Origin: a virus
Virus record (IMG/VR): IMGVR_UViG_3300031992_000005
Coordinates: 192,001 to 256,000 of that record
DNA length: 64,000 nucleotides
Strand: one strand, 5' to 3'
Each line of letters starts with the position of its first letter. Position 1 is the stretch's first letter. The notes beneath the pieces are model-generated. The model was not told where the DNA came from, did not search any database, and was given only the letters and a program-made list of their open reading frames with translations. The translations under genes were made by a program, and so were the position numbers. Shown piece after piece: positions 6,289 to 56,653 of the stretch.

Positions 6289-6644
6289 TGGAAAAGAAGA
6301 AAATAATCCCAATCGCTACAAATTACGAACAGGGAAAGATCTTAGAAGAACTTATTGGCACGGATAGTGCAGATATGGTTTATATAGACTATGGATATGC
6401 AACACGACTCTTACCAAAGAATGATATTGATGCAAATTCATATCCTGTAATATGTTGTGCATGGTCATTGCCAGCATTACTTGATATATTGCCTGAGATA
6501 CAGGGTACGTCGCCTGTAGTCCATACTCATGATAATTCTATATCTTATGCAGGTAAGGATGGGTTGACTGTCGTGTCGGATTCTCTTATCAGTGCTAGTT
6601 ATGAGATTATATTAAAACTTCATAAATTAAACTATGTTGGATAA
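6288..6644 (+). CDS. hypothetical protein (paralog of 1598..1972)
   Basis: TAATG overlap. Shared motifs are listed under 1598..1972. Confidence 0.6.
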   Translation: MEKKKIIPIATNYEQGKILEELIGTDSADMVYIDYGYATRLLPKNDIDANSYPVICCAWSLPALLDILPEIQGTSPVVHTHDNSISYAGKDGLTVVSDSLISASYEIILKLHKLNYVG

Positions 6645-6972
6645 TTTAAAAATTTGGTTGAGCAGAATCTTTAGGCTTCCAGTATCAAGAAAGGCAATTC
6701 TTAATCGAGTAGTAAAATTGTATAAGGGGAAAACTGATGGATTGTGTGAAGCATTGGAGTGGTCATTGATAGATTATGGGATCTATCTTCATGCAGCTGA
6801 TGTTTTTTCTGAATTTCTTACTCAAGAGAATGCTAAGGGATTTGGTGGTATCCTTCCTGGTTTTTGGTGGCCAAGAAAAGACTGGACGTCTGGAAGATCA
6901 GAGTTCCTAGATTGGCTAATTGAACAGTACAAGAATGATAAAACAAACCTAAGAAATTATGTTCAAAGATAA
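6634..6972 (+). CDS. hypothetical protein
   Basis: 112-aa ORF. Confidence 0.55.
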   Translation: MLDNLKIWLSRIFRLPVSRKAILNRVVKLYKGKTDGLCEALEWSLIDYGIYLHAADVFSEFLTQENAKGFGGILPGFWWPRKDWTSGRSEFLDWLIEQYKNDKTNLRNYVQR

Positions 6973-20640: not shown

Positions 20641-20761
20641 TAATTCGAGAGGGAATCGAACCCCCGACCTCCCCGATATATTAGCTTTATATACCTGGTG
20701 TTCTACCTCAGAAAACCTAAACATAAGATCTAATCGTAGATTTTCTCTGAACTATCGAATT
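20641..20761 (-). ncRNA. aberrant tRNA-like RNA (121 nt) with D-loop hairpin insertion and doubled anticodon arm
   Basis: Perfect acceptor AATTCGA/TCGAATT, D stem GTTC/GAAC, T arm GGGGG TTCGATT CCCTC. A 37-nt hairpin (AGAAAATCTA..TAGGTTTTCT) sits in the D loop. The anticodon arm is about 10 bp with loop AAAGCTA. Confidence 0.5.
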
Positions 20762-20762
20762 A

Positions 20763-20787
20763 TTCTTATATATAAGGCTTTGAAGGG
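20763..20787 (-). promoter_or_regulatory. promoter motif (class 1) for the tRNA-like RNA
   Basis: The - strand reads CCCTTCAAAGCCTTATATATAAGAA and ends 1-3 nt before the acceptor 5' end. Confidence 0.5.
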
Positions 20788-21106: not shown

Positions 21107-21142
21107 TCTCTATATATATAAGGCACTAATATGGTTTTGGGG
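21107..21142 (-). promoter_or_regulatory. promoter motif (class 1)
   Basis: The - strand reads CCCCAAAACCATATTAGTGCCTTATATATATAGAGA. Confidence 0.5.
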
Positions 21143-21146
21143 AAGG

Positions 21147-21177
21147 AAAAAAAGATCCACCTTCACAGGCAGATCCT
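21147..21177 (-). terminator. intrinsic terminator (hairpin family 1)
   Basis: The - strand reads GGATCTGCCTGTGAAGGTGGATC followed by T7, downstream of tRNA-Arg. Confidence 0.6.
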
Positions 21178-21211
21178 TTCATAATTCTCGAAAAATTCAA
21201 CAATACATATG

Positions 21212-24914: not shown

Positions 24915-24940
24915 AGAAAAAAAATACCCCTTCAGAAAGG

Positions 24941-25031
24941 GGATAATGCCTTATATATGTAATTTATATTATCTTTCATACATGTTTACTAAAGGGGATC
25001 GTCCGTGATGGATATATCCCCTCATTTTTTT
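24941..25031 (+). ncRNA. ORF-less promoter-to-terminator unit (sRNA candidate)
   Basis: GGATAATGCCTTATATATG, then 34 nt AT-rich, then hairpin GGGGATCGTCCGTGATGGATATATCCCC, then T-run. Confidence 0.45.
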
Positions 25032-25035
25032 GTTC

Positions 25036-25145
25036 AAAAAAAATAGGATCGAGATATACATATTACTATGTATAACCCTGACTGACTATTCTTTTTGAGA
25101 TTTATTATACTCTATATATATCTATTTATAAGGCATTAAGGGGAG
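25036..25145 (-). ncRNA. ORF-less promoter-to-terminator unit (sRNA candidate)
   Basis: The - strand reads CCCCTTAATGCCTTATAAATAGA, then about 50 nt, then TATACAT agtaat ATGTATA hairpin and T8. The hairpin differs from family 1. Confidence 0.35.
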
Positions 25146-25166
25146 AAAAAATACCGCCCCAGAAAG

Positions 25167-25262
25167 AGAAAAATGCCTTATATATAGAAACAGACGCATA
25201 ATAATTTAATTTCATAATAATAACTAGGGGATCGGTTCGTGATGAATAGATCCTTTTTTTTT
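25167..25262 (+). ncRNA. ORF-less promoter-to-terminator unit (sRNA candidate)
   Basis: AGAAAAATGCCTTATATATAG, then 39 nt, then GGGGATCGGTTCGTGATGAATAGATCC, then T9. Confidence 0.45.
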
Positions 25263-25265
25263 CAT

Positions 25266-25368
25266 ATCCCTTTAATGCTTTATATATGATCATAAAAAAT
25301 ATTTTTTTAAGTTTGAAAATAATGATTGGAGGATCAGTCCGGGATGGATAGATCCTCTTTTTTTTTTT
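25266..25368 (+). ncRNA. ORF-less promoter-to-terminator unit (sRNA candidate)
   Basis: ATCCCTTTAATGCTTTATATATG, then 39 nt, then GGAGGATCAGTCCGGGATGGATAGATCCTC, then T11. Confidence 0.45.
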
Positions 25369-25674: not shown

Positions 25675-25700
25675 TATATACTCTTAAGGTATTAAGAGGG
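25675..25700 (-). promoter_or_regulatory. promoter motif (class 1 variant)
   Basis: The - strand reads CCCTCTTAATACCTTAAGAGTATATA. Confidence 0.45.
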
Positions 25701-25702
25701 AA

Positions 25703-25871
25703 GAAAAAAAAAGAGAGGGGAACCCGTTTTAGAGAGTTGACTGATCGTCTGTGCGTCTGTGGGTTCCCCGGAGTGCAGCTGAGCCCGTCCTTTCGATCAT
25801 CGGCGGGGTCCGATCTGCTGCAATTTTCTAAAATCTAATTCCTTTATGTTCATATATAAGGATTTAAGGGG
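25703..25871 (-). ncRNA. GC-rich structured ncRNA candidate (about 135 nt transcript)
   Basis: The - strand reads CCCCTTAAATCCTTATATATG promoter, then GCAGC..ATCGG acccc(g) CCGAT..GCTGC nested helices. A 9-bp helix GGGGAACCC/GGGTTCCCC and T9 close it. GC-rich relative to the AT-rich flanks. Confidence 0.5.
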
Positions 25872-25885
25872 ATTTCAGATTCTTC

Positions 25886-25987
25886 AAAAAAAAGAGAGGA
25901 TCTATCCGTCTCGGACCAATCCTCTAAAAATTATTTAACCTAAATATGATTGTTATGAATGTTTTACATATATAAGAGTTTAAGGGG
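25886..25987 (-). ncRNA. ORF-less promoter-to-terminator unit (sRNA candidate)
   Basis: The - strand reads CCCCTTAAACTCTTATATATG, then about 41 nt, then AGAGGATTGGTCCGAGACGGATAGATCCTCT, then T8. Confidence 0.45.
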
Positions 25988-25989
25988 AT

Positions 25990-26096
25990 AAAAAAAAGAG
26001 GATGACCTATCACAGGCGACCCTCTTCTTCAATAACAAAAATTTAAATCTTTAAATCTATGGATATAATATACAACATATATAAGGGTTTAAAGGG
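25990..26096 (-). ncRNA. ORF-less promoter-to-terminator unit (sRNA candidate)
   Basis: The - strand reads CCCTTTAAACCCTTATATATG, then about 50 nt, then AGAGGGTCGCCTGTGATAGGTCATCCTCT, then T8. Confidence 0.45.
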
Positions 26097-26098
26097 AT

Positions 26099-26202
26099 AA
26101 AAAAAAGAGGAGATCTATCCATCTCGGACTGATCTCCACCTGACATCTGAATATACATCATACTAAAATGAGAGTATTACACGTTAATAAGGAATTAAGG
26201 GG
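26099..26202 (-). ncRNA. ORF-less promoter-to-terminator unit (sRNA candidate)
   Basis: The - strand reads CCCCTTAATTCCTTATTAACGTG, then about 42 nt, then GGAGATCAGTCCGAGATGGATAGATCTCC, then T-run. Confidence 0.45.
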
Positions 26203-26204
26203 AT

Positions 26205-26298
26205 AAAAAAAAAGAGAATCTATCCATCTCGGACTGATCCTCTAATAAGAAACATTCTATTAATTCTTAAACTTTTACATATATAAGAATTTAAGGGG
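26205..26298 (-). ncRNA. ORF-less promoter-to-terminator unit (sRNA candidate)
   Basis: The - strand reads CCCCTTAAATTCTTATATATG, then about 34 nt, then AGAGGATCAGTCCGAGATGGATAGATTCTCT, then T9. Confidence 0.45.
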
Positions 26299-26301
26299 AT
26301 G

Positions 26302-26390
26302 AAAAAAAAAAAGAGAATCTATCCATCACGAACTGATCCTCTTCAGAGTAAAATAAACATTACACGTACATATATAAGGCATTTAAGGGG
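26302..26390 (-). ncRNA. ORF-less promoter-to-terminator unit (sRNA candidate)
   Basis: The - strand reads CCCCTTAAATGCCTTATATATG, then about 26 nt, then AGAGGATCAGTTCGTGATGGATAGATTCTCT, then T11. Confidence 0.45.
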
Positions 26391-26393
26391 TAT

Positions 26394-26493
26394 AAAAAAA
26401 ATGACCGACTCATCACGAGCCAGCCATTGAATAATTTTTGAACTTTTTTTACCCAAGAAAAATAAGTACTTTCATTTATAAGAATTTAAAGGG
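26394..26493 (-). ncRNA. ORF-less promoter-to-terminator unit (sRNA candidate)
   Basis: The - strand reads CCCTTTAAATTCTTATAAATG, then about 45 nt, then AUGGCUGGCUC GUGAU GAGUCGGUCAU. That helix has 11 bp with three G.U pairs, so it is valid only on the - strand. T-run follows. Confidence 0.45.
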
Positions 26494-26545: not shown

Positions 26546-26935
26546 TTATAGTCGGTGAAACCTAACGGTCACCTTTGATACATCCATCGATATAGAACAA
26601 CCATTTTCTAAGATTGTTCTGTAATATGGATCTTCAATCATCTTCTTTTCTGATACTAGCTCTTCCCTAGTCTTATCACATTCACACCTGATACTAGGGG
26701 AATTCATTAATTTGTCATAAATTAATATAAGATTACTAGCAGGACCAGAAAATTCTATCGTATTTTTGTCTATCTGCGTTAATGGACATGCAGATTCATA
26801 TCCATATCCACACAAAAGATCAAACAGTAACTTTATCTTTGGCCCAATAGTTGCACAATAATCCGTATATTTTTCATCATAATATGCCCTAATATCAAAT
26901 ATGTGATCTATTGGAATAAGATTAGTATTAGAATC
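26546..26935 (-). CDS. DNA polymerase, family A (PolA) - exon 4
   Basis: Begins GAT TCT (DSNTN..). Joined to exon 3 it gives ..IITVH|DSNTN, which is motif C (vHDe). In-frame to TAA at 26546-26548. Confidence 0.7.
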   Translation of the reverse strand, partial: DSNTNLIPIDHIFDIRAYYDEKYTDYCATIGPKIKLLFDLLCGYGYESACPLTQIDKNTIEFSGPASNLILIYDKLMNSPSIRCECDKTREELVSEKKMIEDPYYRTILENGCSISMDVSKVTVRFHRL

Positions 26936-27237
26936 CGTTCTCTTCACATAAATTCGCTACATTTATGCCGGGCAATGCCACAGCTAATCATCTCTGATTA
27001 GACGAGACTATATCTTCAGTAAATAATTACTGCCTACTTTTTCGAACACCCATCGCTTGTGCTCTACTCTACTCACTTCTTCAGGTTTCCCCTATGCTTT
27101 CGATAGTCGTTGAATAAGTTTATAACTTACTGCTGATTGACTCTATTCATTGGATTTTTACTTCTATTCGATAGTACCAATGACCTAACAAGTTGTTCCA
27201 GCAATTAAGTAGGTTTATAGTGCACCATAAACTAACA
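26936..27237 (-). mobile_element. group I intron 3 (302 nt, ORF-less)
   Basis: The - strand carries P AATTGCTGGAA (27196-27206), Q AATCAGCAG (27130-27138), R TTCAACGACTATCG (27101-27114) and S AAGATATAGTCT (27005-27016). The 5' exon ends in U and the intron ends in G. Confidence 0.75.
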
Positions 27238-27637
27238 ATGCACTGTAATAATAGGTTGTAATGGTTGCTTCCAACCATCTTTAATTGATGACCTAATATT
27301 ATTAAAGAATCCACTAGCCATAATTGTACTAGTTCCTCCTTGAATAGGTAAATTTACACCTAATCTTTTGATTCTGGCAATTATATTTTGCGCTTCTTTT
27401 TGATCTTTTGCTTTTGGCAAATATTCATAATACTCCCTTAACCTTAATTTGTCTCCTAACATGGTATTAATGTAACCATCATGATCTAATGGATACTGAC
27501 CCTGAGACTCCACATATTCCCTGAGCTTTGGAAAAGACTTATATAAACTCTGGATAATATTCTCAGCTTCTTCAACAGAACTATCTAGTCGAGCTGCTAA
27601 GGAATTTTTCCCTAAGCCGTACAATACACCCAAGAAT
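27238..27637 (-). CDS. DNA polymerase, family A - exon 3
   Basis: FLGVLYGLGKNSLAARL (motif B, K..NFG..YG), NLPIQGGTS, ends ..ITVH. Confidence 0.75.
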
Positions 27638-27932
27638 CATTACTACTCATAATTTCTTATGAGATTAGACTATATCATTATCCGATTATTCGGATAGGTT
27701 GCACTTCGGAATAGAGAATTTCACTCTAAACCTACTCCTCGGTTAAAATTATTTTAACGTCATAGGATAGTCGTTACACTTTCTTAGACTAATCTAAGCT
27801 TAGCACGGTATTGGCATATCTTATTATTAAGACTTAGCTTTCCACCGTTAGCACTAATAAATTAGTACACCCTAGATTTCTAGGTTCACAACCTTTTCAT
27901 TAACTAATTACTTAGTTATGCCACATCTATCT
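27638..27932 (-). mobile_element. group I intron 2 (295 nt, ORF-less)
   Basis: The - strand carries P AACGGTGGAAAG (27838-27849), Q CCAATACCGTGC (27803-27814), R GTAACGACTATCC (27765-27777) and S GATATAGTCT (27667-27676). P1 guide GTGG pairs with exon CCAU. The intron ends ..GTAATG. Confidence 0.75.
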
Positions 27933-28146
27933 ATGGTCTTGAATTTCTTTCTATAAGTCTTTTGTTCTTTTTTACTAAGGTTATTCCAACCTTCTTCACC
28001 TAAATATAGTTTCGAACTATATATGTATATGTCTTCTCCAGCGTTGAACTTACTTATTAGATCAGGATCCAAAGACGCGTCAATTTTGTTATCCTTAGAA
28101 CTTTTTATTTCTAAGTTCAATTGATTCTTAATTCTCAATTGTTCAG
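27933..28146 (-). CDS. DNA polymerase, family A - exon 2
   Basis: Starts CT GAA CAA TTG AGA. With exon 1 this gives ..YFDINSEQLRI (motif A, DYSQIELR-like), then GEDIYIYSS (DIH..TA) and RKKFKTI. Confidence 0.7.
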
Positions 28147-28414
28147 CATATATTTTCACCCTATTAGATAGGGTGGGGAACACTCGTGGTAGGATTATTC
28201 TATTCGTCACCTACTATGCGTTACACTACTAGGATACCTTTAATATTATCTTAGTTAGCACGGTATTGGCATCTCAGCTTTCACCGTTTTTGCTCCCTGT
28301 ACCCCGTAATATTACTATTACGGTGGGCAATTTTTTACCCCGCGCTCTTACAGATTGTTACCCTATAGGCTTTTTATCCTATAGTTCTATGGATTCATTT
28401 TATCCATAGCTCGG
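28147..28414 (-). mobile_element. intron-like unit A (268 nt), third element stacked at the motif-A site
   Basis: Starts CCGAGC, ends GAAAATATATG. P/Q-like block AAAACGGTGAAAGC..CCAATACCGTGCTAAC is identical to unit B and related to intron 2. I found no clear P1 guide. Confidence 0.5.
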
Positions 28415-28615
28415 CATATATTTTCATCCTAGATAACTAGGATGACGGACACTCGTGGAGAGATTATATTTATTCACTCTCTATGCTCTACACTACTTAC
28501 TTAACCTTTCGCAATTTAAATAAGTTAGCACGGTATTGGCATCTCAGCTTTCACCGTTTTTGCCCGTTTATTATCACTTACATTACTATAAGTGACGGCT
28601 AAATTTTAACCTCGG
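28415..28615 (-). mobile_element. intron-like unit B (201 nt), second element stacked at the motif-A site
   Basis: Starts CCGAGGTTAA, ends GAAAATATATG. GGTTAA could pair with exon-1 TTAACU once intron 1a is removed. Same P/Q-like block as unit A. Confidence 0.5.
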
Positions 28616-30154
28616 CACTACTACATTGTGTTCAGGAGGCACGTTACATCTCCCGGTTCTCACTTAGCTAAAACTAAGATGAACTCCTACATATCTCTAT
28701 GCAGATCAGACTATATCTTAATCTCATTTCTGAGATTCTTACCGTTTCCACTTAACGATTTCAAGTGTACTCCCATTACTGGGATAGTCGTTGGGGTTTA
28801 AGAATTTAATCAGTTAGTCGGGCTGATTTTCTTTTATTTTTTGAATAAGGACATTACTGTCTGTAATTACTTCAGTGAAATATCCATATTTTTCGTAAAT
28901 TTTTATTTCATTAGTGAAATATAATAATGGTATATTATTTTTCTTAGCATAATCGTACTTCAGATGATCCCTTTTTATAGCAATTTCTGAATAACGTTTA
29001 TCGTTAGGATCAAAATGTTGACACCCATGATACTCTACTAAGATATTATATTCTGGTAAATAAAAGTCAAACCTAAGATGTGATATATTCTTTAAATCTG
29101 GGTAAGTTTTCTCAGATGTAAATTCAATATTATTTCCCGTAAATAGGTCTGCCAAAAATAGTTCCCCATTAGAGTTAATGAGCGGGAATATGCTATCTTT
29201 ATCATCATCAGATAATAATAAGAACCTATAATAGCAATTACGAAATCTTCTATAAAAATCCTTCCTAGATAGGATATTATTGTCAGCAATAAATACCTTA
29301 AAATCTTCTACCGTATTAATATTAGAGTAATCTCTATTATTGTTTGGTAATAGACTTTCTTTCTCCTCTTTAGATAAGAGTCTACTAAATCTGCAATATA
29401 CTTGCTCAAATCTACGACAAAGATCTATTCTGGAGGTTATATTATTTTCTTGAATAAATGAACGAAAATCCTCATATGTATTTATATACGAATAATCTTT
29501 TAGCATACTAGGGAGAATTCTATTTTGATCTTCACTACTCAATTTAATAAACTTATTATATCCTCCTCGAAATCTTTTTTGAAAATCATAACGGCCTACA
29601 ATTTCGTATGTTTTAATGAATTTCCTAAAATCATCCTCAGTATTCAAAGTAGAGTAATCTGCCTTTTTTATAGTTCCTTTATAAGGTAAAATAGTTTCTT
29701 GCTCTTCCTTTGATAGAAAGTTTAAGAACCTAAGATAAGCCCCAGGATATTCAGTATGTAATGTTTTTCGAGAGTGAATATTATTAGTTTTAATAAACCT
29801 TTTAAAGTCGTTTGCAGTATTGAGATTAGAATAATTACCTAAGTTCGAAGGCAGTAATTTTTCTTGTTCATCATTACTTAATTTCTTGAAGCAATTATAA
29901 ACCTTTCTATACTCCTCTCTCAGCCTAGACCTCTTCTCAATACCATTATCTTTTATAAATTTTTTTATTTCCTCATAATCCATTTTTTTTTTAAATTTTA
30001 ATTTTTTTCGTTCTTCTTAAACCTGCTGATTAACTCTATTCCCTAGATTGTTACTGCCGTGACTAAATCGGCTAGTACTAGAGACCTAACAAGTCTTTCC
30101 AGCATTTAGTAAGTTTGTTTTTCATAAGGTCACCCTTATGTGACACTAGTTTCT
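28616..30154 (-). mobile_element. group I intron 1a (1539 nt) carrying a homing-endonuclease ORF
   Basis: The - strand carries P AAATGCTGGAAAG (30095-30107), Q AATCAGCAGG (30022-30031), then the ORF, then R AACGACTATCC (28782-28792) and S AAGATATAGTCT (28708-28719). Follows exon-1 U30155 and ends in G28616. Confidence 0.7.
28814..29983 (-). CDS. intron-encoded homing endonuclease (PD-(D/E)XK / Vsr-DUF559-like nuclease with 5 N-terminal repeats)
   Basis: Five repeats of about 55 aa ([DN]YS.[LI]NT..DF..FI..N.I.SR....R[FY]...Y..F..LS..E[QK]..[IL]LP). C-terminus HLRFDFYLPEYNILVEYHGCQHF. Sits between Q and R of the intron. Confidence 0.65.
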   Translation of the reverse strand: MDYEEIKKFIKDNGIEKRSRLREEYRKVYNCFKKLSNDEQEKLLPSNLGNYSNLNTANDFKRFIKTNNIHSRKTLHTEYPGAYLRFLNFLSKEEQETILPYKGTIKKADYSTLNTEDDFRKFIKTYEIVGRYDFQKRFRGGYNKFIKLSSEDQNRILPSMLKDYSYINTYEDFRSFIQENNITSRIDLCRRFEQVYCRFSRLLSKEEKESLLPNNNRDYSNINTVEDFKVFIADNNILSRKDFYRRFRNCYYRFLLLSDDDKDSIFPLINSNGELFLADLFTGNNIEFTSEKTYPDLKNISHLRFDFYLPEYNILVEYHGCQHFDPNDKRYSEIAIKRDHLKYDYAKKNNIPLLYFTNEIKIYEKYGYFTEVITDSNVLIQKIKENQPD

Positions 30155-32828
30155 AGTTAATGTCAAAATATGTTAGTAATTGGTCATCCCCACCATATAT
30201 GATATTTCCATTTTTGTTCCGAATTGGAGCAGGAATTAAGCAATTTTTGACAGGGCTATGTGAGGGAATCGTATGAAAACTTGATGACCAGCGTTTACTT
30301 GATTTTTTGAGTACTTCGTATGGAGTAAAATTCTTCTTTACTGCTCCTGGTTCATCCGGATCTGCATCTCTAATTGGAATATGATGCTCATCTTCAATTA
30401 CCCATTTTGCCCTCTTATTAAACATTCCATCTGGACCTACATACACACTTAACATTTTCGCATGTTTCTTATATATGAGGTAGTTGAGTGTGAATTTTCT
30501 CATAAAGTAGAAATCATTACTGAGATCTACCTCAGGATCAAATGGGCTTTCATAATTTAAGTAATCACCCTGATACTCTGGAAAAAGTTGTGTTTGTGTG
30601 TTAAATCCAAGAAAATCTGTCCAAATTTCCTTTACTTTATCTGCGGTTTGATATAAAACTGTCTCTACACCTTTCACACTAACTTTTTTTCCAAGTTTAG
30701 GGCTACCATAAAATTCGAATGCTAGGTCAAATACTTTCTTCGGGTATAATGGGCTTTCGTATTCGCCATTACTGTCATAATACTTTTTCCATTCATCTAA
30801 CATTTCTTGATAACCTTCATCTATATCAGTAATACCTCTACTTGAATAGAATTTTGTTGTCTCAGGTAACTGCTGGATACTTTCTGACATGGCAGCTAAG
30901 AAAGCAGTTTTTCCTTTAAGTCCAGGAATGATAGGATTAACCATCATATCATATACGATTTTATCATTCTGTTCTGGACTAAGACACATGAAATAATTAT
31001 CAGATAGAAACTTAGAATACTCCAAGAGATCCATTTTCTTACCAAAGATATATATTTTCTCTGGGATATTATGAATATCCTTAAGCTGTTTTTTATTTAT
31101 TTTTTCCAGCTCAGTATATATCTTTCGATAATACATGTATTTCTCAAGTTCTATATGCTTCTTATTAATCTTTCCCTCTGAATCAAATTTAAGACTATCA
31201 ATTCCGAAGAGATGTATTGTTTTTTCTGCCAGGACCCCTAAGAATTTCTTTTTCCTAATAATACCTTCGTCGATCTTACCCTTTAACTTAACTTCGCTTG
31301 CAGCTTGTCTAACAAAATCTACGAATTTTTCTCCAAAGTCCTGTCCATATTTCATAACAAGTCCTCCCTCATTTAATCCAGTTTCTGTTGAATCTAGGTA
31401 ATCGAGATTACTTGTTAAGATATATTTTAAGATTTCAATTATATTACCTTGAAAAAAGTTTCCTTCTTCCAATAGTTTTACAGCAATTGGCTTATATCTC
31501 TTTATATTAGTAGCCAAGGATTGATGTTTTTGCATCTTTATCCAACAAAGAGCTCTAGTTGCCCAAGTACTAGACCAAGCCATCATCTCCTTACAATACT
31601 TTTCAAATCTAAGTCTGAATGGCTCATCTATATAGTGGCCATGTGACATAAGTCTTGCGCCAAGTCTCAGGTTATCTAAGAAAACGTTGAAACACTCTTC
31701 TGTATACTCAGACTTTTTCTTAAGATAAATCATAAGAGTATAGAATGAGTCAAGGCAGCAATACTTTCCTAAGATTTCACTTGGGATAGGCATGAATTGA
31801 TTTCCCCAATACTCTAAGATCAGTTCCTTAAATTCATCTTCATATCCAGGATATCTCTTACAAATTTCTCCCCATTCAGGAGTATTTGTAAAGTTTTCTG
31901 GGGTTACTTTTAATTCTAGGTGAATGTCCTTCTTAAGTTTACCAACTTCCTCCAATAGCATGTGTTCAATTAAGTCACTAAGTCTATCGAAGTCAGAATC
32001 CCAAACTTTCACACCAAGTACTCTTTGAGCAGTCCATTTGAGAGAGTAGTTCTTCTCATGTAATCCATCTAGTACATTAACGACGGATGCATCTGATAGT
32101 TCATATAAGTCAACTCCCATTATTCTATGACTAACCTGATACTCGAATTGTAGGTTATAAGTCCAGATATGTTTCATTCTCTTAGATAGAAATTTTGCCA
32201 GTTTATCTAAGACTGCCCTATACCCTTCACTAGACTCTCCTACTTCATGTCTCAAGTCCGTTAAGCTAATAAAAGCCGCTTCTTTTGCTGTAGATATTGC
32301 AAAACCTGATACAAAGAACACTTTCTCCATTGGCATTCCACTAGTTTCATAGTCAAATCCAAAGTCAGTGTCCAATGGTAATGAGTCTACGTAATCAAGG
32401 AACCTCAATGCATCAGTCACAGTGTGAATTACGCACCACTTGAAATCATGGTAATCAACCTCTCTTGTAAAACTTGGACTTATAAAGTCTTCTAAGAGAC
32501 CTGGAATCAATGCCTGTTGTACATCTACTGCACATCTAACATAAGCTCCGCCTTCTAAGGATACTCTATAAATTCTGGAACAATCGAAGTAATTTTCACC
32601 ACGAATACCAAAGTGATACCTTTCTCTCAGGTAACTGAAGGCTTTAGCGCCAATTAATAATGCACCATCCCCTTCACCAAGTGCAAGAAGATCATTTCTT
32701 TGTTCTTCGTCCATCTTCTCTAGAAGTTCTAGAGGATAGACTCCACAACTTAGTTTTAATCCATATAATCCCACATAATCGTGGCATTCTTCTGAACTAA
32801 CTAAAACTATCCTTTTATTCATAATCAC
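30155..32828 (-). CDS. DNA polymerase, family A - exon 1 (3'-5' exonuclease plus N-terminal polymerase part)
   Basis: 891-aa ORF with FGFDYETSG (ExoI), NLQFEYQ (ExoII) and YCCLDSFY (ExoIII). Ends ..LLTYFDIN at the start of motif A. T30155 of the in-frame TAG is taken as the last exon nt. Confidence 0.75.
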
Positions 32829-47586: not shown

Positions 47587-48126
47587 ATGAACAAATTACT
47601 TATATCAAGAGAATATCATAACAGTGCAATGGAAATAAATTTGGCACTAGACACATTATCAGTGCCTAAAATTGTTTTATATAAGTTAGATAAGTATTCA
47701 CGTACCGTCAAGTGGTGGAAGTTAGATAGTTGGTTAAATTGGAATTATTATCCGGAACATATAGATTTTGTAACAATAGATAATATATTTTTAACCATAG
47801 GTTATTTTAGCATGTATGAATGTAAGTACATGCCTATAAAAAAACTAACCGATAGAACTTCACTGCACTTGGCATATGCTTGTAGTAAAGAAGTAAAAAA
47901 TATAACAATTTATTATCAAAGCATGTATGAAACCTATCTAAAATTAAATAGCTTAGATAATCACCATGTGACTGTATTTAATACTAAAAAAGATCTTATT
48001 AATTTTCTGAGTGAGTTCTATAAATACATAAGGGCGGATGATGAATGCCTATATAATTTCATGTTAAATCTATTCCGAGCTAATCACCTGATAAATGAAA
48101 CTGTACCAAGAATACCGATAAAATGA
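47587..48126 (+). CDS. tandem paralog family, member 1 of 12
   Basis: 179 aa, divergent. Core DNIFLTIGY and C-terminus LNLFRANHLI sit at the family positions. Confidence 0.55.
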   Translation: MNKLLISREYHNSAMEINLALDTLSVPKIVLYKLDKYSRTVKWWKLDSWLNWNYYPEHIDFVTIDNIFLTIGYFSMYECKYMPIKKLTDRTSLHLAYACSKEVKNITIYYQSMYETYLKLNSLDNHHVTVFNTKKDLINFLSEFYKYIRADDECLYNFMLNLFRANHLINETVPRIPIK

Positions 48127-48620
48127 AAAGTGACATTAAAGGAAGATTAGTATTACTCATTACTGAACGCAAACAAGAACTTGATTTTAAATACTGCAGT
48201 GTATGGGTAACTATAGAGAACTTAGTTCTTTCTAATTCAGGTAGTTACATATTTAATGCAGGCAAAAAAGATTATCCAGCTAGAATTGAAATACCAACCA
48301 CAAATGCAGATAAGTATCAGGTAGATCCCCTAAATCTATTAAATATAGGAAGCAACTTAGGATATCACCTGGGGTGGATTTCATTACCACAGTTTAAGTG
48401 TTTTTCTAGATGGAATGCAAAAAAGTGGTCAGCCAATCCTAGGATACGAGACTATAGCTTATGTTTCGCAAGAATTCCTTGGGGAAGTAGAAAATACTAT
48501 ATTTATGAATTAACTGGGGATGAATTAGCTCAGCTTTTCAAAAATTATATTAATACGATGGATAGCTATGCTATTCGAAACATATTAACGGAAATATTGA
48601 AGTATAATAAAGTAATATGA
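48123..48620 (+). CDS. tandem paralog family, member 2 of 12
   Basis: 165 aa with an ATGA overlap. Weak family match (LLNIGSNLGY; C-terminus EILKYNKVI). Confidence 0.5.
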   Translation: MKSDIKGRLVLLITERKQELDFKYCSVWVTIENLVLSNSGSYIFNAGKKDYPARIEIPTTNADKYQVDPLNLLNIGSNLGYHLGWISLPQFKCFSRWNAKKWSANPRIRDYSLCFARIPWGSRKYYIYELTGDELAQLFKNYINTMDSYAIRNILTEILKYNKVI

Positions 48621-49153
48621 ATACTGAATTAATCGTCTATAAAGATTACACTTCTACTAATAACTTTATTTATTTTATAAATTTCAATAAATTCAAAATC
48701 CCGATTGATCTATTAGATAACTCTCATTTGTGGGGAAACAGAATAATTATATCATCCTCTACAGCAATAGGTAAGCAGGTATTATCGGATAACTATCATA
48801 GATTGTACTTGGAAGAGTTTCCAGATATTGCCTTTTGCTTAGGCCAAAGTCCCAGTAATTTTAAGCACATGACTAAACGACAGTTGCATCTTAAGTTTCT
48901 GGGGAATCCTCGTTTTCTTGCTTCAACAAGCCAAGTATTCTATCGAAATTTTAAATGGAAATATTCGACAGGTGCACCTTGGGATTTATCAAGGAGTAGT
49001 ATATTCTTGTTTCAATCTTTACCATTAGATAAATGGTTCGTAGGTAAAATAATTTATGATTACCTATTCCGCGTTAAATTGCGTAATTGCACTCTTCCAG
49101 AAGATCTTAAAATCGCAGAACGCATATTTAACCTGAATGAGTGTTATGAATAG
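48617..49153 (+). CDS. tandem paralog family, member 3 of 12
   Basis: 178 aa with an ATGA overlap. N-terminus ELIVYKDY..FKIPIDLL; C-terminus AERIFNLNECYE. Confidence 0.55.
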   Translation: MNTELIVYKDYTSTNNFIYFINFNKFKIPIDLLDNSHLWGNRIIISSSTAIGKQVLSDNYHRLYLEEFPDIAFCLGQSPSNFKHMTKRQLHLKFLGNPRFLASTSQVFYRNFKWKYSTGAPWDLSRSSIFLFQSLPLDKWFVGKIIYDYLFRVKLRNCTLPEDLKIAERIFNLNECYE

Positions 49154-49580
49154 TGTTGAATTGACTCTATTTAAGAGATATGACGAAACTCATATGATTA
49201 TATATTTCCTAAAATTCGGGAAAATTACTTTACCTAATATCTCAAACCCTGTACGTGAAGTTTACTTAGACATTGGATTTGAATATTACAGGACTAAACA
49301 TGTTACATTAAGATATCTTCTGAACAACTTAGATTCGATCGTATATCGCTTTTCATTACCTAAGTTCAGGGGATACAATCAGGTAATCAGAAAGTTTAAA
49401 GTCTATAAAGACCCATTCCAAGTTATTTACTTAAAGGGGAAAGCTCTGGATAATGTATTAGAAAATTATCTTCAAGTAATCGATGATTGTTTAGAATATA
49501 CTAGTGTGAAAGAATATTCATTAATCAGGGACATTATCGTATGTAATCGAACCAATGATACAAGAACTATATATTATTAA
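49137..49580 (+). CDS. tandem paralog family, member 4 of 12
   Basis: 147 aa with a 17-nt overlap. Core EVYLDIGFEYY. Confidence 0.5.
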   Translation: MSVMNSVELTLFKRYDETHMIIYFLKFGKITLPNISNPVREVYLDIGFEYYRTKHVTLRYLLNNLDSIVYRFSLPKFRGYNQVIRKFKVYKDPFQVIYLKGKALDNVLENYLQVIDDCLEYTSVKEYSLIRDIIVCNRTNDTRTIYY

Positions 49581-50010
49581 TCTATTCGCAGTTAGAGATT
49601 TATACATGCACTATAAACGCTTATTGATTCCAAAATTATTTATATCTGCAGAAAAAAACGGTAGCTATAGAATTGGGGGTTATAAAAAAGATGACACATC
49701 TTCACTATTGGAAGTGAAAGACGTATATCTATATATGGGTTTTCATTTCTATGAAAATGATAAGGAAACCCAAACTATGAAATTCCTATCCCCTAGGAAA
49801 GTAAAAAACCTAATTTTTACATACCGTCCGGGTGCTGGGATTGGTAGATTTTATAAGAGTTTATTACCTACACCAACATATAGGTATTATCAAAAGACTG
49901 AATTAACGCCAGATCAGCTAGTTTATCTTAACCATATATATGTTCAAAATACAGCAAACGGTATCAGAGAAAAATTTCAGGAAATATTTAAACTGAATAA
50001 TATATGGTAG
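49555..50010 (+). CDS. tandem paralog family, member 5 of 12
   Basis: 151 aa. DVYLYMGFHFY, ELTPDQLVYL, C-terminus QEIFKLNNIW. Confidence 0.6.
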   Translation: MIQELYIINLFAVRDLYMHYKRLLIPKLFISAEKNGSYRIGGYKKDDTSSLLEVKDVYLYMGFHFYENDKETQTMKFLSPRKVKNLIFTYRPGAGIGRFYKSLLPTPTYRYYQKTELTPDQLVYLNHIYVQNTANGIREKFQEIFKLNNIW

Positions 50011-50483
50011 AACTATGTATTTTTAAGGGAAGTGTATTCCGGAGTTTCCTAGATATATACTTATATTTCTCTGAATTAAAAATTCCTGAGGTTTTTTTAT
50101 CTAGTACAGCTAAGAAAGTAGAAATTTTATCCGAATCCTCTACTAATTCTGATGAGATACTAACCTTCAATAATCTTTACCTGAGAATAGGTTATGTATA
50201 TAGTTCACAGGAAAGAATAAAGTCAATAACTTATAATTATTTTAAGAAAAAAATGTTAGGTAATCTATCACATGCAGTAGCAACAGAACTACTCTATGAT
50301 ATTCCTAGAACACCTTATTCATTTCCATTTCAGAGAATACAGATACCAGATGAATTGGTAGGTAGTATATTGAAACTTCATATTGAGCAGCTCTACTCCT
50401 TAGATATGTCAGAATACACTAGTGTATATAAAAAATCCGTTCATAGATGTGAGGAAATATTTAAACTGAATGATATATGGTAG
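50004..50483 (+). CDS. tandem paralog family, member 6 of 12
   Basis: 159 aa. MVELCIFKG.., ELKIPEVF, NLYLRIGY, C-terminus EEIFKLNDIW. Confidence 0.65.
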   Translation: MVELCIFKGSVFRSFLDIYLYFSELKIPEVFLSSTAKKVEILSESSTNSDEILTFNNLYLRIGYVYSSQERIKSITYNYFKKKMLGNLSHAVATELLYDIPRTPYSFPFQRIQIPDELVGSILKLHIEQLYSLDMSEYTSVYKKSVHRCEEIFKLNDIW

Positions 50484-50959
50484 AACTATGTATCTTTAAG
50501 GGACATTCAAACTTTTTTCCAGCTCTTATGTTAGATATATATTTACATTTCTCTGAATTAAAAATTCCTAAGGTTTTTATATATAGTACATATGAGAAAG
50601 TAGTAATTTTATCTGACTCCTCTACTAATTCTAATGATGAGATACTAACCTTTAATAATCTTTACTTGAAGATAGGTCATATATCTAGTTCACAAGAAAG
50701 ATTTAAACAAATGACCTACAATTACTTTAAGAAAAAGATGTTAGGTAATCTATTATACGCTATGGCAACAGAACTTTACCGTGATATTCCAAAAGAACTC
50801 TTCTTATTTCAGGAAATACAGATACCAGGTGAATTGGTAGGTAGTATATTGAAACACTACATCGAGCACTTTTATTCTACGGAGAGCGTACTTGGTGATA
50901 TATATATTAAATTCACCCGTATATATGAAGAGATATTTAAACTGAATAATATATGGTAG
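50477..50959 (+). CDS. tandem paralog family, member 7 of 12
   Basis: 160 aa. MVELCIFKG.., ELKIPKVF, NLYLKIGH, C-terminus EEIFKLNNIW. Confidence 0.65.
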   Translation: MVELCIFKGHSNFFPALMLDIYLHFSELKIPKVFIYSTYEKVVILSDSSTNSNDEILTFNNLYLKIGHISSSQERFKQMTYNYFKKKMLGNLLYAMATELYRDIPKELFLFQEIQIPGELVGSILKHYIEHFYSTESVLGDIYIKFTRIYEEIFKLNNIW

Positions 50960-51447
50960 AACTATGTATAAATAAAACAGGTGTAGATATATTCCCAGTC
51001 CGTTGGCATCAGCTAGATATATATTTATGTTTTTCTGAAATAAAAATTCCCAGGATTTTTATTTCTAGTATGGAGAAGACCGTAGAAATTTCACCAGAAT
51101 CTCCTACTCATTTTAACGATGACATATTAATCTTCAACAATATTTATTTGAAAATAGGTTATATATATAGTTTACGAGAAAGAGTGAAACTAGTGACTTA
51201 CAATTACCTTAAGAAAAAGATGTTGGATGATATGTCATCGTTGATGGCAAAAGAACTGCGCTATAATTTCCCAGAAACATCCTATTCTTTTCAGAGAATA
51301 CGACTACTAGATAAAGAAATAGAAAGTATATTGAAACATCACATCGAGTATCTTTACGCTATGAAGAACGTACTTGGTTATCTATATACTAGATATGTTT
51401 GTAGATATGAAGAAATATTCGAACTAAATGGATTATTATGCAAGTAG
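50953..51447 (+). CDS. tandem paralog family, member 8 of 12
   Basis: 164 aa. MVELCINK.., EIKIPRIF, NIYLKIGY, C-terminus EEIFELNGLL. Confidence 0.65.
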   Translation: MVELCINKTGVDIFPVRWHQLDIYLCFSEIKIPRIFISSMEKTVEISPESPTHFNDDILIFNNIYLKIGYIYSLRERVKLVTYNYLKKKMLDDMSSLMAKELRYNFPETSYSFQRIRLLDKEIESILKHHIEYLYAMKNVLGYLYTRYVCRYEEIFELNGLLCK

Positions 51448-51893
51448 AGTTGCGTACGTATTTGGAAGAATATAGTACCCATGTTTATTTAAGATTTCCC
51501 ACATTCAAGTTATACCATCGTTACGTTATTGAGCACAACGACGGATATCATATAGCACAAAACTCGGTGGTGTGGAGAAACCATATAATAGTAGAACAAA
51601 ATTTATATCTATTTCTAGGTGTAAAACCGTATCACGACTATAGACCAATTAAATTACAAACACGAAGACAAGTATATAATATGTTGGGACAAATATTTCA
51701 GCCTGGATTTGTTGGTCTTAGAAAAAATAATGATCACTTAGAAAAGGATTACTTTGTAAAAATAACCCTACCTGAAGAAAAAAGAAATGAAGTAGTGAAA
51801 TCACTAGTACAGAATCTTGTGCGTAATAATATTAATACTACTGCTATAGAGCAATTTAAGGAATTGCTTAAATTAAATGGTATACTTATATGA
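51438..51893 (+). CDS. tandem paralog family, member 9 of 12
   Basis: 151 aa. NLYLFLGV; C-terminus KELLKLNGILI. Confidence 0.6.
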   Translation: MQVELRTYLEEYSTHVYLRFPTFKLYHRYVIEHNDGYHIAQNSVVWRNHIIVEQNLYLFLGVKPYHDYRPIKLQTRRQVYNMLGQIFQPGFVGLRKNNDHLEKDYFVKITLPEEKRNEVVKSLVQNLVRNNINTTAIEQFKELLKLNGILI

Positions 51894-52384
51894 AAGAAGA
51901 TATTGTAGCTAAGTTAGTTATATCTAAAGGAACTTTTTCATACTGTTTAGCAGTTAATGATATAATCGTCCCAAAAGGATGTTTTGGTAATATGCTATTC
52001 TGTGTTTATAATGATGATGAAGAAAGATTCCGTAGTCTCTCTCCCGAGTTCTCAGGGAAATTACAAGGAACAGCCCATTTACGCCTGGGAACTATAAAAG
52101 AGAGATGTAAGTATATAACTAAACGGTCATTATTTAATATAATAAAGACCTCTCCATATATACACTCCCGTTTCTTTGTTAGTAATATGCAGGTAGCAAG
52201 TTTTCAAACTATATCACTAACTGAAACTGAATTATTAGACTTAGGTTCAATTCTTTTGGGGAAAATGAGAAACCATGTTACAGAGTATTATACTCCGAAT
52301 TATGAAGCTATATTTATAGCAAACGGGATATTTAAGAAAGAAGTATTTACTCCAATAACACCATATTGGAATTATGGCAGCTAG
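51890..52384 (+). CDS. tandem paralog family, member 10 of 12
   Basis: 164 aa with an ATGA overlap. HLRLGT, SLTETELLDLG, EAIFIANGIF. Confidence 0.6.
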   Translation: MKEDIVAKLVISKGTFSYCLAVNDIIVPKGCFGNMLFCVYNDDEERFRSLSPEFSGKLQGTAHLRLGTIKERCKYITKRSLFNIIKTSPYIHSRFFVSNMQVASFQTISLTETELLDLGSILLGKMRNHVTEYYTPNYEAIFIANGIFKKEVFTPITPYWNYGS

Positions 52385-52865
52385 GTTAGTGTTGATTAGG
52401 TATATTGAAGATGCTATTGACTATTACCTAATGTTAGATAAAATAACTATTCCTAATTCAGCTTTAGCGACATCCGGTATTAACTTAGTTGGTTCAAATG
52501 AAGAATGGTACCTATATTTAAAAGATAATGCAGTCAATGAAATACGGAAAACGACTACTGTATTTCTTTGTCGAAGTTATAGAAATATATATAAATATAC
52601 TACTAAACGCCTTTTTTATAAGTGGCTTAGAACGACTGGCTTATATAACATAAACTCAGAACCAATATTCTATGCTCACCTAAATCATTACCAGGAAGAG
52701 ATCTTTCAATCAATCCCCCTAACAAAAACAGAACTAGAAACAATCGGAACCCTGTTTTTGGAAAGACTTTTAGATAAAACTAGGTGTTACTATACCTCGG
52801 AATTTAATGAACGAAAAGAAAAGTATGAAATACTTTTTAAAGCAAATGGGATGTATAAAAAATGA
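52374..52865 (+). CDS. tandem paralog family, member 11 of 12
   Basis: 163 aa. IPLTKTELETIG; YEILFKANGMYKK. Confidence 0.6.
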   Translation: MAARLVLIRYIEDAIDYYLMLDKITIPNSALATSGINLVGSNEEWYLYLKDNAVNEIRKTTTVFLCRSYRNIYKYTTKRLFYKWLRTTGLYNINSEPIFYAHLNHYQEEIFQSIPLTKTELETIGTLFLERLLDKTRCYYTSEFNERKEKYEILFKANGMYKK

Positions 52866-53359
52866 GCGCTACTTTATTTATAGTTAAACATCCGGGTCCT
52901 CGCTCCATCTTTAATTATATTATACTGTTTGATGAAATCATTATACCAGAGGATGAGCTGGTCCGGGAGTGTATCATGATTTATGATAAACAGAATGACG
53001 CATATAAATGGCTAGCTGAGGAAACTCGTCCAGGAAAATATAAGGGAAATATTGCATTAAATATAGGTCGTGGACCAAGTAGAACTAAATTTCTGACTAA
53101 AAATATAGTTTTTAATTGGTTAAAGACTAGCAATCAGCTTAATAATTTTCCAAGATTCCTGATCAGATTAGATAAGGATTTTTGTTATTCATGGGAATAT
53201 ATATTTCAAACTATACCTTTGACAGGGGATGATCTTATTAAGATCGGAACTCGCCTTATTGATTATCCTCCTTACGAAGATATTAATAGGTATCGTTCTA
53301 CAGAATCATATAGAATTCTTTTCTCAGCAAACGGTTTATTTCCTCCCATAAATCCCTAA
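52862..53359 (+). CDS. tandem paralog family, member 12 of 12
   Basis: 165 aa with an ATGA overlap. IALNIGRG, IPLTGDDLIKIG, YRILFSANGLF. Confidence 0.6.
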   Translation: MSATLFIVKHPGPRSIFNYIILFDEIIIPEDELVRECIMIYDKQNDAYKWLAEETRPGKYKGNIALNIGRGPSRTKFLTKNIVFNWLKTSNQLNNFPRFLIRLDKDFCYSWEYIFQTIPLTGDDLIKIGTRLIDYPPYEDINRYRSTESYRILFSANGLFPPINP

Positions 53360-55604: not shown

Positions 55605-55736
55605 AAAAGGCCTTAAAACCTTATATGTAGAGAAGCAAAACAAAAGATAATTTCCCGCTCTCTATATATTCAACGAGAGCTCCCTAAAATAAAGAATGAG
55701 TTTACAATACATTAGGGAGCTTTCTCTTTTTTTTTT
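55605..55736 (+). ncRNA. ORF-less promoter-to-terminator unit, long form (about 105 nt transcript)
   Basis: AAAAGGCCTTAAAACCTTATATGTAG, then helices GCTCTC/GAGAGC and GAGCTCCCTA/TAGGGAGCT, then T10. Confidence 0.45.
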
Positions 55737-55738
55737 CT

Positions 55739-55842
55739 AAAAACCCCTTAATGCCTTATATATGATTAGTAAACGCTTTATGACAAAACAACATCAGTCA
55801 ATAGGAGATCACCTGTGATAGGCATATCTCCTATTTTTTTTT
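55739..55842 (+). ncRNA. ORF-less promoter-to-terminator unit (sRNA candidate)
   Basis: AACCCCTTAATGCCTTATATATG, then 39 nt, then GGAGATCACCTGTGATAGGCATATCTCC, then T9. Confidence 0.45.
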
Positions 55843-55943
55843 CATCCCCTTAATGCCTTATATATGTAAATTTTCCATATTAAAATTGTTATTTGTTAAT
55901 AGGGAAGGGATCGGTCCGTGAGGGATAGATCCCTAATTTTTTT
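55843..55943 (+). ncRNA. ORF-less promoter-to-terminator unit (sRNA candidate)
   Basis: CATCCCCTTAATGCCTTATATATG, then 41 nt, then GGGATCGGTCCGTGAGGGATAGATCCC, then T-run. Confidence 0.45.
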
Positions 55944-56640: not shown

Positions 56641-56653
56641 AAGCATTCCATAG

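Follow-up and report, generated by a model that had tools for sequence, protein, structure and literature searches.

We describe here 15 short predicted transcription units without open reading frames (ORFs) in a 64-kb stretch of viral DNA (positions 192,001 to 256,000 of the IMG/VR record IMGVR_UViG_3300031992_000005), which is called the window below and to which counts of motifs, hairpins, and targets apply unless stated otherwise. Each unit is composed of a phage promoter motif, an AU-rich, weakly structured, and unit-specific RNA segment of 33-54 nt, a conserved hairpin, and a U-run. On balance, and with moderate confidence, we interpret the units as a phage-expanded family of independent regulatory (antisense) small RNAs (sRNAs) of ~60-85 nt, each with a 5' seed and a shared hairpin. 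At the level of sequence, an own promoter and an intrinsic terminator bound a short non-coding transcript in them, as is generally expected of trans-acting sRNAs.

The units are found in three clusters. The first array (25886-26493, minus strand) consists of six head-to-tail units, each with a promoter, a variable 5' part, the constant hairpin, and a U-run, as the original prediction had described. Direct-repeat analysis of this array recovered promoters spaced 104, 91, 96, 106, and 109 nt from start to start as well as the hairpin repeat; a seventh copy of the promoter, belonging to a separate RNA (the g RNA, see below), lies 116 nt beyond the sixth. The second array, again with six units, is located on the plus strand (55744-56316), directly 3' of a gene for a 743-aa FtsH-like protein. 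The third cluster (~24940-25368, plus strand) contains three units and is convergent with the first array. The arrays are located at operon ends and in a zone of convergent transcription. In all array units with a full promoter, the distance from the promoter to the end of the terminator is 69-89 nt. The 10 kb past the right end of the window contain no further units.

The units had been described as devoid of any meaningful ORF, which holds: no ATG ORF starting inside a unit exceeds 34 aa, and the one of 34 aa reads through the terminator. Where the same motif precedes real genes, ORFs of 68-206 aa begin 32-48 nt downstream, without an early terminator. We rejected a protein or micropeptide reading, since the only ORFs available (8-34 aa) start in the promoter or cross the terminator and none is common to the units.

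The promoter motif CCCYTTAANNYCTTATWWA has 20 matches at ≤1 mismatch, against 0.05 expected by chance. In agreement with the earlier claim that it also precedes real genes and tRNAs, it is found before ORFs and before tRNA-Lys, tRNA-Arg, and a tRNA-like gene. Its standard form in the clade is CCCYTTAA-N3-CTTATATATG, with one copy per unit (the copy of unit C_6 is degenerate in the window). The relatives L149, L150, L151, and L153 (40-50% protein identity) share the core CTTATATATG, which in them precedes both protein genes, with leaders of 20-40 nt, and small RNAs; it is the predicted general promoter core of a clade of gut phages of 200-430 kb. When the viral collection was scanned for the promoter pattern, only scattered single matches turned up. 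The window variants TACTTTTG or TACTATTG approach the Bacteroides -7 box TAnnTTTG. The units carry TAtaTaTG, with one mismatch to the sigma-ABfr -7 box TAnnTTTG, after a phage-specific CCCYTTAA box; a -33 TTTG was not noted. In genuine phage FopS genes (see below), TATCTTTG or TACCTTTG lies four nt before the RNA start. The promoter could be read by the host RNA polymerase via the -7-like TAnnTnTG box, or by the phage's own multisubunit RNA polymerase.

The same promoter also drives other small RNAs. In the related jumbo phage L151 (1020-1450, plus strand), three consecutive promoter-driven small RNAs share GGCTTA...AGCTACTTCTA, and one of them has a T-arm-like GGTTCGAGTCC. They are a putatively different small-RNA family under the same promoter.

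In the hairpin that closes the units, a 1x1 mismatch separates an outer helix from an inner one of 4 bp, which carries a GNGAN pentaloop. The hairpin core GATCAGTCCGWGATGGATAGATC has nine matches at ≤3 mismatches, against zero expected. In a gapless alignment of 14 hairpins, 99.4% of the cells are paired and 11 out of 11 pairs change on both sides, which none of 500 shuffles equals; shifting the 3' partner by one to three columns reduces pairing to 38-55%. A larger set of 32 hairpins, to which two diverged strains, three distant relatives, and four unrelated loci from phages or Bacteroidales contribute, is paired in 98.6% of cells, and none of 500 shuffles reaches that percentage or the covariation score, with the proviso that this alignment was fitted to the model and thus leans towards structure. 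Two helices around a mismatch, conserved in sequence as well as in structure, had been proposed, with covariation across related phages as a check; the proposed structure is borne out, and the hairpin is, judged by its covariation, an RNA structure under selection.

The loop had been given as G[AUG]GAU. The type is correct, with G1, G3, and A4 of G-N-G-A-N invariant in the 14 hairpins, but the strict form is not, as GAGAC and GUGAG loops occur. At the base of the inner helix, four pairs from the loop, stands a G.U pair in 13 out of 14 hairpins and in 28 of the 30 scorable rows of the larger set; it is never swapped for G-C or A-U. In unit C_1, in units 1 and 3 of strain L400, and in one unit of strain L401, G.U has become A.C via changes on both sides. 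An A.C pair can take the same wobble geometry as G.U. We infer from this pattern selection for wobble geometry and hence specific recognition of the hairpin. As claimed before, the G.U pairs also fix the transcribed strand, because they would be A.C on the other strand; the promoters and U-runs indicate the same strand.

A covariance model was built from the 14 hairpins and used to search the window with filters off. It returned 15 matches with 30.9-55.8 bits, which are exactly the 15 ORF-less units. The next match (23.9 bits) is a weaker related hairpin, GCCU-GUGAA-GGUG, which serves as terminator after tRNA-Arg (21142-21179, minus strand), and ordinary gene terminators score at most 23.6 bits. 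The terminators of protein genes are unrelated in both stem and loop. The hairpin therefore marks the ORF-less units, and we ruled it out as the generic terminator of the phage.

The 5' parts of the units are rich in A (36%) and U (41%), contain 8% C, and are mostly unpaired in predicted folds. Folding of the 15 units gave a single hairpin in each, followed by U7-11, and a low mean pairing probability of the 5' part in most of them. The triplet CAT, which gives the anti-start-codon CAU in the RNA, occurs 15 times in the 5' parts vs 7.2 expected (P = 0.003) and lies 4-16 nt after the promoter in 10 out of 15 units; ATG is not enriched in the 5' parts. Some 5' parts are related to each other. 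The 14-mer AAUACUCUCAUUUU is present without change in both B_d and C_5, which also have the same promoter variant but different linkers; the pairs B_f/C_3 and C_3/A_3 have similarity scores of 26-28, vs a null 99th percentile of 22.

Two diverged strains allow a comparison of the 5' parts. Strain L400 has a 96% identical FtsH-like protein, 85% identity at third-codon positions, and an array orthologous to that of the window, with one unit (C_4) lost, one gained, and the C_6 promoter intact. Over 23, 23, and 20 nt, respectively, its C_2, C_5, and C_6 cores match those of the window exactly, and its hairpins have changed in the N positions of the loop and by compensatory stem changes. In strain L401, the 83-aa protein encoded near the arrays is 89% identical, and four units orthologous to B_a, B_c (probable), B_d, and B_f are followed by the G+C-rich g RNA; B_a, B_d, and B_f retain their 5'-proximal cores there, next to rearranged linkers. 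Conservation of the variable segments had been named as a check, and the answer is divided: the cores are kept across strains, but whole segments are conserved no better than synonymous sites. We therefore regard the conservation evidence for functional 5' parts as suggestive, not strong.

At gathering thresholds, Rfam recognizes only four tRNAs in the window. In E-value mode, beyond FopS and GibS, it gave only unrelated eukaryotic and enterobacterial families, and we rejected membership of a known RNA family on these grounds. FopS and GibS are sRNAs of Bacteroides that invite a closer comparison. FopS is a set of 14 paralogues, each an RNA of ~70 nt in which an unpaired 5' seed precedes a lone terminator hairpin; these RNAs are bound by the RRM protein RbpB, and their repression of susC-like mRNAs takes place at the start codon (PMC11697453). 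In both FopS and GibS, RbpB contacts the single-stranded 5' portion, with an affinity in the micromolar range, and counteracts the sRNA (PMC11697453). In GibS, a 38-nt single-stranded 5' seed, which base-pairs across start codons, comes before internal hairpins and a terminator (PMC7366714).

The units resemble FopS in being multicopy RNAs of ~70 nt in a Bacteroides setting, each copy with its own promoter, and in combining a single-stranded AU-rich 5' part with one hairpin with a GNGA-type loop and a U-run terminator. The FopS seed holds the anti-start-codon CAU, in which the 5' parts of the units are enriched as well, and genuine FopS copies exist in Bacteroides phages (78.9 bits in BX-TP2 and in MT836368). 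In contrast to FopS, whose copies share one seed and are dispersed in the genome, the units have 5' parts that differ from each other and form tandem arrays of up to six; their promoter has a phage-specific upstream box, and their hairpin an extra internal mismatch and a conserved wobble. Membership of FopS (RF04319) was rejected: the best unit and the only one listed, C_4 (56083-56145), scores 23.1 bits (E = 1) vs a gathering score of 56, while the phage-borne FopS copies L396 and L397, our positive control, score 78.9 and 78.8 bits. The FopS R1/R1' seed GUGUUUUUCAUGGUAUUAGAU was not found at the 5' end of the units, and a visual resemblance between that seed and the 5' parts did not survive comparison with composition-matched shuffles. 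Scored with the model of the unit hairpin, the phage FopS hairpin GGCUGUCU-GGGAU-AGAUAGCC reaches 26.7 bits; another phage FopS hairpin reaches only 17 bits, so that the link to FopS hairpins is weak.

With GibS, the units have in common a long unstructured 5' part. The hairpins are alike as well: in the first one of GibS, a GUGAU loop tops a 4-bp helix that closes with G.U and is followed by an A, and in the relative L149 the inner 13 nt of the unit's hairpin, GCUUGUGAUAAGU, equal the GibS consensus hairpin. GibS differs in its length (~145 nt), in having two internal hairpins and a separate terminator, and in being single-copy; in the window units, the hairpin itself is the terminator. The best scores against GibS (RF04182) are 27.5 and 23.9 bits vs a gathering score of 115, which led us to reject membership. 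The units are thus members of neither FopS nor GibS, yet their predicted architecture is the same.

Beyond the window, the hairpin core GTCCGNGATGGATAGA matches at least 117 viral contigs. About 100 of these matches represent one conserved site in contigs of 80-157 kb, with a TAcaTTTG box and a short 5' part containing CAUUCAU ahead of the hairpin, whose outer stem differs in sequence but is still complementary; a linker then leads to a terminator of its own. In the example L004 (IMG/VR; 6590-6760, plus strand), the 5' part is CAUUCAUGAAUAG... and the outer stem CCCAUC/GAUGGG; sites of this type sit between a gene for a 2162-aa protein and one on the opposite strand for a 350-aa protein. The layout is GibS-like in its predicted elements, and this sRNA-like gene has no match to an Rfam family or in GenBank phages. 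In contigs L027, L063, and L078, the core lies inside other covarying stems followed by T-runs. Most core matches in a scan of bacterial genomes fell by chance into coding sequences of unrelated phyla; the surroundings formed a true hairpin in metagenome-assembled genomes (MAGs) of Bacteroidales, Bacteroidaceae, and Tannerellaceae and, outside these groups, in a single Eubacteriales MAG. This distribution makes the hairpin look like a modular part of small RNAs associated with Bacteroidales. A metagenome scan for two hairpin halves 75-105 nt apart returned microsatellite-like repeats, with the hairpin in none of 120 loci among the matches listed. One 5.8-kb contig labelled Vibrio olivae (L205; NZ_JBHMEP010000026.1) has the same hairpin surroundings as the 80-157-kb IMG/VR contigs and is probably phage or contaminant DNA in that assembly.

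For the units, we propose that the AU-rich 5' seed would base-pair with AU-rich start regions devoid of a Shine-Dalgarno sequence and block initiation, as GibS and FopS do, with host mRNAs, phage mRNAs, or both as targets. The hairpin, with its G-N-G-A loop core, its G.U/A.C wobble, and the adjacent 3' A, may serve as the terminator and at the same time as a module for stability or for one RNA-binding partner. Fifteen different seeds would allow many targets to be hit at once; the units undergo rapid gain and loss between strains.

The variable segments had been expected to be complementary to something. Against the phage's own DNA, as far as the 64-kb window covers it, complementarity is at chance level: exact k-mer complementarity of the seeds does not exceed chance. 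With gaps, B_f is a marginal exception (P = 0.013 in 600 dinucleotide shuffles, uncorrected for the 15 units), and B_d gives P = 0.048. The candidate B_f target (49125-49151, plus strand) is where translation of ORF 49137-49580 would start, in one of 12 paralogous genes arranged in tandem; the match spans the start codon on the sense strand. The reverse complement of the B_f segment, TATTTAACCTAAATATGATTGTTATGAAT, aligns with TATTTAACCTGA--ATGAGTGTTATGAAT at 49125-49151, which yields the two pairing blocks AGGUUAAAUA and AUUCAUAACA. The predicted duplex has ~-28 kcal/mol; in 40 shuffles, the best of 86 start regions gave -17.9 ± 2.7 with a minimum of -24.9. The two blocks of B_f that L401 preserves overlap for the most part with the pairing blocks (10 and 8 of 10 nt). 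We treat this putative pairing as a lead, not as a result. The genes to which the candidate target belongs (47587-53359, plus strand) form a series of twelve tandem overlapping paralogues of 147-179 aa without a Pfam or PHROG match.

The original prediction had placed guide, antisense, and decoy functions side by side. We favor an antisense battery because of the weak structure of the 5' parts, their CAU enrichment, the identical cores of 14-23 nt, and a layout of the GibS/FopS type (PMC7366714, PMC11697453). Several observations weigh against it. Complementarity to the 64-kb window is at chance level for 14 of the 15 seeds, and the P value of the remaining one, B_f (0.013), precedes correction for 15 tests. 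None of the 15 5' segments is similar to the FopS or GibS consensus (local alignment vs shuffles, P > 0.05). The identity of whole 5' segments between strains (0.78 counting gaps) is not above that of synonymous sites (0.85), so that selection is visible only as conserved cores, at a rough P of ~0.02 (three out of five units with identical runs of ≥20 nt). Finally, the phage L152, whose polymerase is 69% identical, has neither the promoter nor an array beside its polymerase gene, which indicates that the arrays are not a conserved requirement of the clade.

Some of these observations would be explained if the units acted as decoys or sponges, in which the RNAs or the promoter DNA soak up an AU-binding RRM protein similar to RbpB, a hairpin-binding protein or RNase, or RNA polymerase. 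Many copies of one constant hairpin with features of a protein site (invariant loop core, G.U/A.C wobble), the binding of RbpB to the single-stranded 5' portions of FopS and GibS (PMC11697453), the lack of a detectable target in the window for most seeds, and an overall 5' identity between strains not above the neutral level would all suit such a role. A pure sponge, however, does not need exact cores of 14-23 nt beside diverged linkers, nor CAU enriched at a fixed distance from the promoter, and no gene for an RNA-binding protein was recognized next to the arrays: the neighboring 83-, 92-, and 169-aa proteins have no RNA-binding domain, with a weak winged-helix hint only. We therefore consider a decoy function unlikely, with perhaps one chance in several.

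Empty or decayed expression cassettes had been raised as an alternative. In this case, the units would be leftover or selfish promoter-terminator cassettes, arisen as by-products of recombination or from decayed genes, that at most insulate neighboring operons. Their position at operon ends and in a convergent zone is in line with this, as are the turnover of units (C_4 absent and an extra unit present in L400, four units in L401 vs six) and the degenerate promoter of C_6. Against it stand the uniform unit length, the conserved 5' cores, and a type of hairpin that is not used after protein genes and is maintained by compensatory changes including G.U to A.C. Ordinary genes in the same cassettes of related phages would have pointed to decay; relatives at 40-50% protein identity have no such genes there and carry single units of the same design. 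This makes the explanation improbable. Hardly probable at all are guide-like RNAs or anti-defense mimics, with the hairpin as a handle for an RNA-guided effector or a host defense protein (a mimic of a CRISPR repeat or type III antitoxin): a variable 5' part with a constant 3' handle, separately transcribed, would resemble CRISPR RNAs with a 3' handle, the hairpin features are sequence-specific, and sRNA-like genes of unrelated Bacteroidales phages, and also Bacteroidales genomes, contain the same core, but the variable parts of 33-54 nt lack repeat-spacer regularity, no effector or Cas-like gene was recognized near the arrays, the units are not identical tandem repeats as in ToxI, and no spacer-like match to the window or to GenBank phages was found.

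The guide option of the original prediction, in a CRISPR-like sense, thus finds no support. For similar reasons, the units do not look like a CRISPR array or solitary repeats (variable parts of 33-54 nt, each unit with a promoter and a U-run) or like arrays of type III antitoxin RNAs such as ToxI (units differing in their 5' parts, separately promoted and terminated). Trans-acting sRNAs of phages and prophages include DicF, the anti-sRNAs AgvB and AsxR of EHEC prophages, and the sRNAs of vibriophage VP882. Like the units, these are small, have their own promoter and terminator, and base-pair with host or phage transcripts; unlike the 15 paralogous tandem units, the known cases are single genes or pairs, proteobacterial, and Hfq-dependent. 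To our knowledge, the Bacteroidota, the host phylum in question, have neither Hfq nor ProQ. The tRNA region of phage T4, with its species 1 and 2 RNAs, is a cluster of small stable RNAs in a large phage. The likeness to such a cluster lies in short non-coding genes beside phage tRNA genes, and the tRNAs of the window use the promoter motif of the units; the units differ in having no tRNA-like fold and in being singly promoted and terminated instead of processed from a precursor.

Several features point to the identity of the phage. Contigs of up to 354 kb encode identical copies of two proteins of the window, the FtsH-like one and the one of 83 aa, and homologues at ~40% identity occur on contigs of 200-430 kb. 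The gene for a family A DNA polymerase upstream of the first array (26546-32828, minus strand) is split into several exons and contains four group I intron matches (26984-27262 with 63 bits, 27646-27892, 28387-28618, and 28687-28857; E-values from 1e-5 to 7e-15) and an ORF for a 389-aa homing-endonuclease-like protein (28814-29983, minus strand). A motif similar to the Shine-Dalgarno sequence (-18 to -4) precedes two out of 62 ORFs (background, 9%); upstream of the ORFs, the sequence is rich in A and poor in G, and 38 of the 62 long ORFs have T at position -1. Such A-rich, G-poor upstream regions with few Shine-Dalgarno sequences are typical of Bacteroidota. The contig sizes, the introns, the split polymerase, and the scarcity of Shine-Dalgarno motifs fit the Jug phages, whose genomes of 360-402 kb use the standard genetic code, are rich in group I introns of ~206 nt, contain split polymerase genes, and encode an RpoC; Bacteroides or Phocaeicola are the predicted hosts (PMC12880540). 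More than 1500 genomes of the Jug type have been reported. The phage thus presumably belongs to the Jug clade and infects Bacteroides or Phocaeicola. The description of the Jug phages contains none of the terms sRNA, noncoding, promoter, and tRNA (PMC12880540).

Alignment of the polymerase recovered the relatives L152 and L153, neither with an array. A BLAST search with the array against 50,697 GenBank phage records gave no match, nor did a single-protein scan for relatives with the FtsH-like protein. The arrays are, by this distribution, apparently lineage-specific.

The first array comprises the following units, all on the minus strand. B_a (26391-26493) has its promoter at 26493-26475 and the hairpin GGCUGGCUC-GUGAU-GAGUCGGUC with U8 (44.8 bits), and an orthologue in L401. 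B_b (26302-26389; promoter 26389-26371) and B_c (26205-26298; promoter 26298-26280) end in the shared hairpin with U11 (53.7 bits) and U9 (54.9 bits), respectively, and B_c has a probable orthologue in L401. B_d (26099-26202) uses the promoter variant CTTATTAA (26202-26184) and the shared hairpin with U8 (51.1 bits); its 5' core AAUACUCUCAUUUU, common to C_5, is retained in L400 and L401. B_e (25988-26096; promoter 26096-26078) has the hairpin variant GCCU-GUGAU-AGGU with U8 (48.0 bits). B_f (25886-25987; promoter 25987-25969), whose 5' segment is complementary to the start region of ORF 49137, has the shared hairpin with U8 (50.7 bits) and an orthologue in L401. The g RNA that follows (25700-25871; promoter 25871-25853) is ~150 nt long and G+C-rich, and ends in its own hairpin with U9, outside the hairpin family. 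It is conserved with indels in L401 (9790-9950), has a folding z-score of only -1.45, and has no Rfam match.

In the third cluster (plus strand), A_1 (24940-25031) has the promoter core ATGCCTTATATATG (24946-24959) and the shared hairpin with a 1x2 internal loop and U7 (37.8 bits); its orthologue in L401 lies on the opposite strand of the corresponding locus. A_2 (25173-25264) has the promoter core ATGCCTTATATATA (25173-25186) and the shared hairpin (GUUC/GAAU) with U9 (50.4 bits), and A_3 (25268-25368; promoter 25268-25286) the shared hairpin with U11 (54.7 bits). Two more ORF-less units combine the same promoter with other hairpins. One (25143-25035, minus strand; promoter 25143-25125) has an unrelated hairpin with U8 and is conserved in L401. 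The other, C_0 (55609-55741, plus strand), is ~100 nt long, with the promoter variant GGCCTTAAAACCTTATATG and an unrelated long hairpin with U11, and is conserved in L400 and L398.

The second array (plus strand) begins with C_1 (55744-55842), with the hairpin variant ACCU-GUGAU-AGGC, in which A.C replaces G.U, and U9 (33.5 bits). C_2 (55846-55943) has the 5' core UUUCCAUAUUAAAAUUGUUAUUU, identical in L400 at 23/23 positions, and the shared hairpin with U7 (49.2 bits). C_3 (55946-56046), a paralogue of B_f, has the hairpin GCCU-GUGAU-AGGU (ACCU/AGGC in L400) with U9 (42.3 bits). C_4 (56051-56146), the sole unit with a weak Rfam FopS match and absent from L400, has the shared hairpin with U8 (55.8 bits). 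C_5 (56147-56234), a paralogue of B_d with the promoter variant CTTATTAA and the core AAUACUCUCAUUUU, has the shared hairpin with U7 (51.4 bits). C_6 (56235-56316) has the 5' core ACAUGUUAGUAAUUUAGUUU, identical in L400 at 20/20 positions, and a 3x3 internal loop in its hairpin, with U9 (30.9 bits); its promoter, degenerate in the window, is intact in L400.

Two further regions of the window deserve mention. The promoter-driven tRNA-like gene at 20650-20787 (minus strand) was missed by ARAGORN. It has the canonical T-arm GGTTCGATTCC, an acceptor 5' end and a D-arm like those of the neighboring tRNA-Lys, and ~45 extra nt in the middle, and may be an intron-containing or otherwise unusual tRNA. 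At 56320-57155, 3' of the second array, an AT-rich non-coding region of 830 nt contains the iteron-like repeats AGCCATAAAAAT, AGCCATAGAAAT, and TTTTAGCCAAAAAAA, is flanked by the inverted repeats AAAAAGCCGTTGAGAGATCTCT ... AGAGATCTCTGAACGGCTTTTT, and is conserved in strain L400. Its central structured segment (56658-56795) gives a weak RT-14 RNA match (29.1 bits vs a gathering score of 48.1). This region may be an origin or a mobile element.

Post-transcriptional control in the Bacteroidota, the dominant Gram-negative phylum of the human gut, is barely understood, and GibS, FopS, and RbpB are its first characterized players. A bolder proposal, which we put forward as a long shot, is that the hairpin is the handle for one dedicated RNA-binding effector and that the arrays are a programmable multiplexed battery silencing mRNAs of the host or of rival phages, with a handle shared with sRNA genes of unrelated Bacteroidales phages and with host sRNAs of the GibS type. 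If true, this would be a previously unrecognized sRNA-protein system of a phylum without Hfq and ProQ. The conserved hairpin, which is also present in sRNA-like genes of unrelated Bacteroidales phages and in genomes of Bacteroidales, offers a concrete candidate binding site for an RNA-binding partner. A widespread type of jumbo gut phage appears to copy a host sRNA design and to expand it into tandem batteries of many seeds, which points to an RNA-based takeover of host expression (surface transporters, capsule) or to control of the phage's own multigene families.

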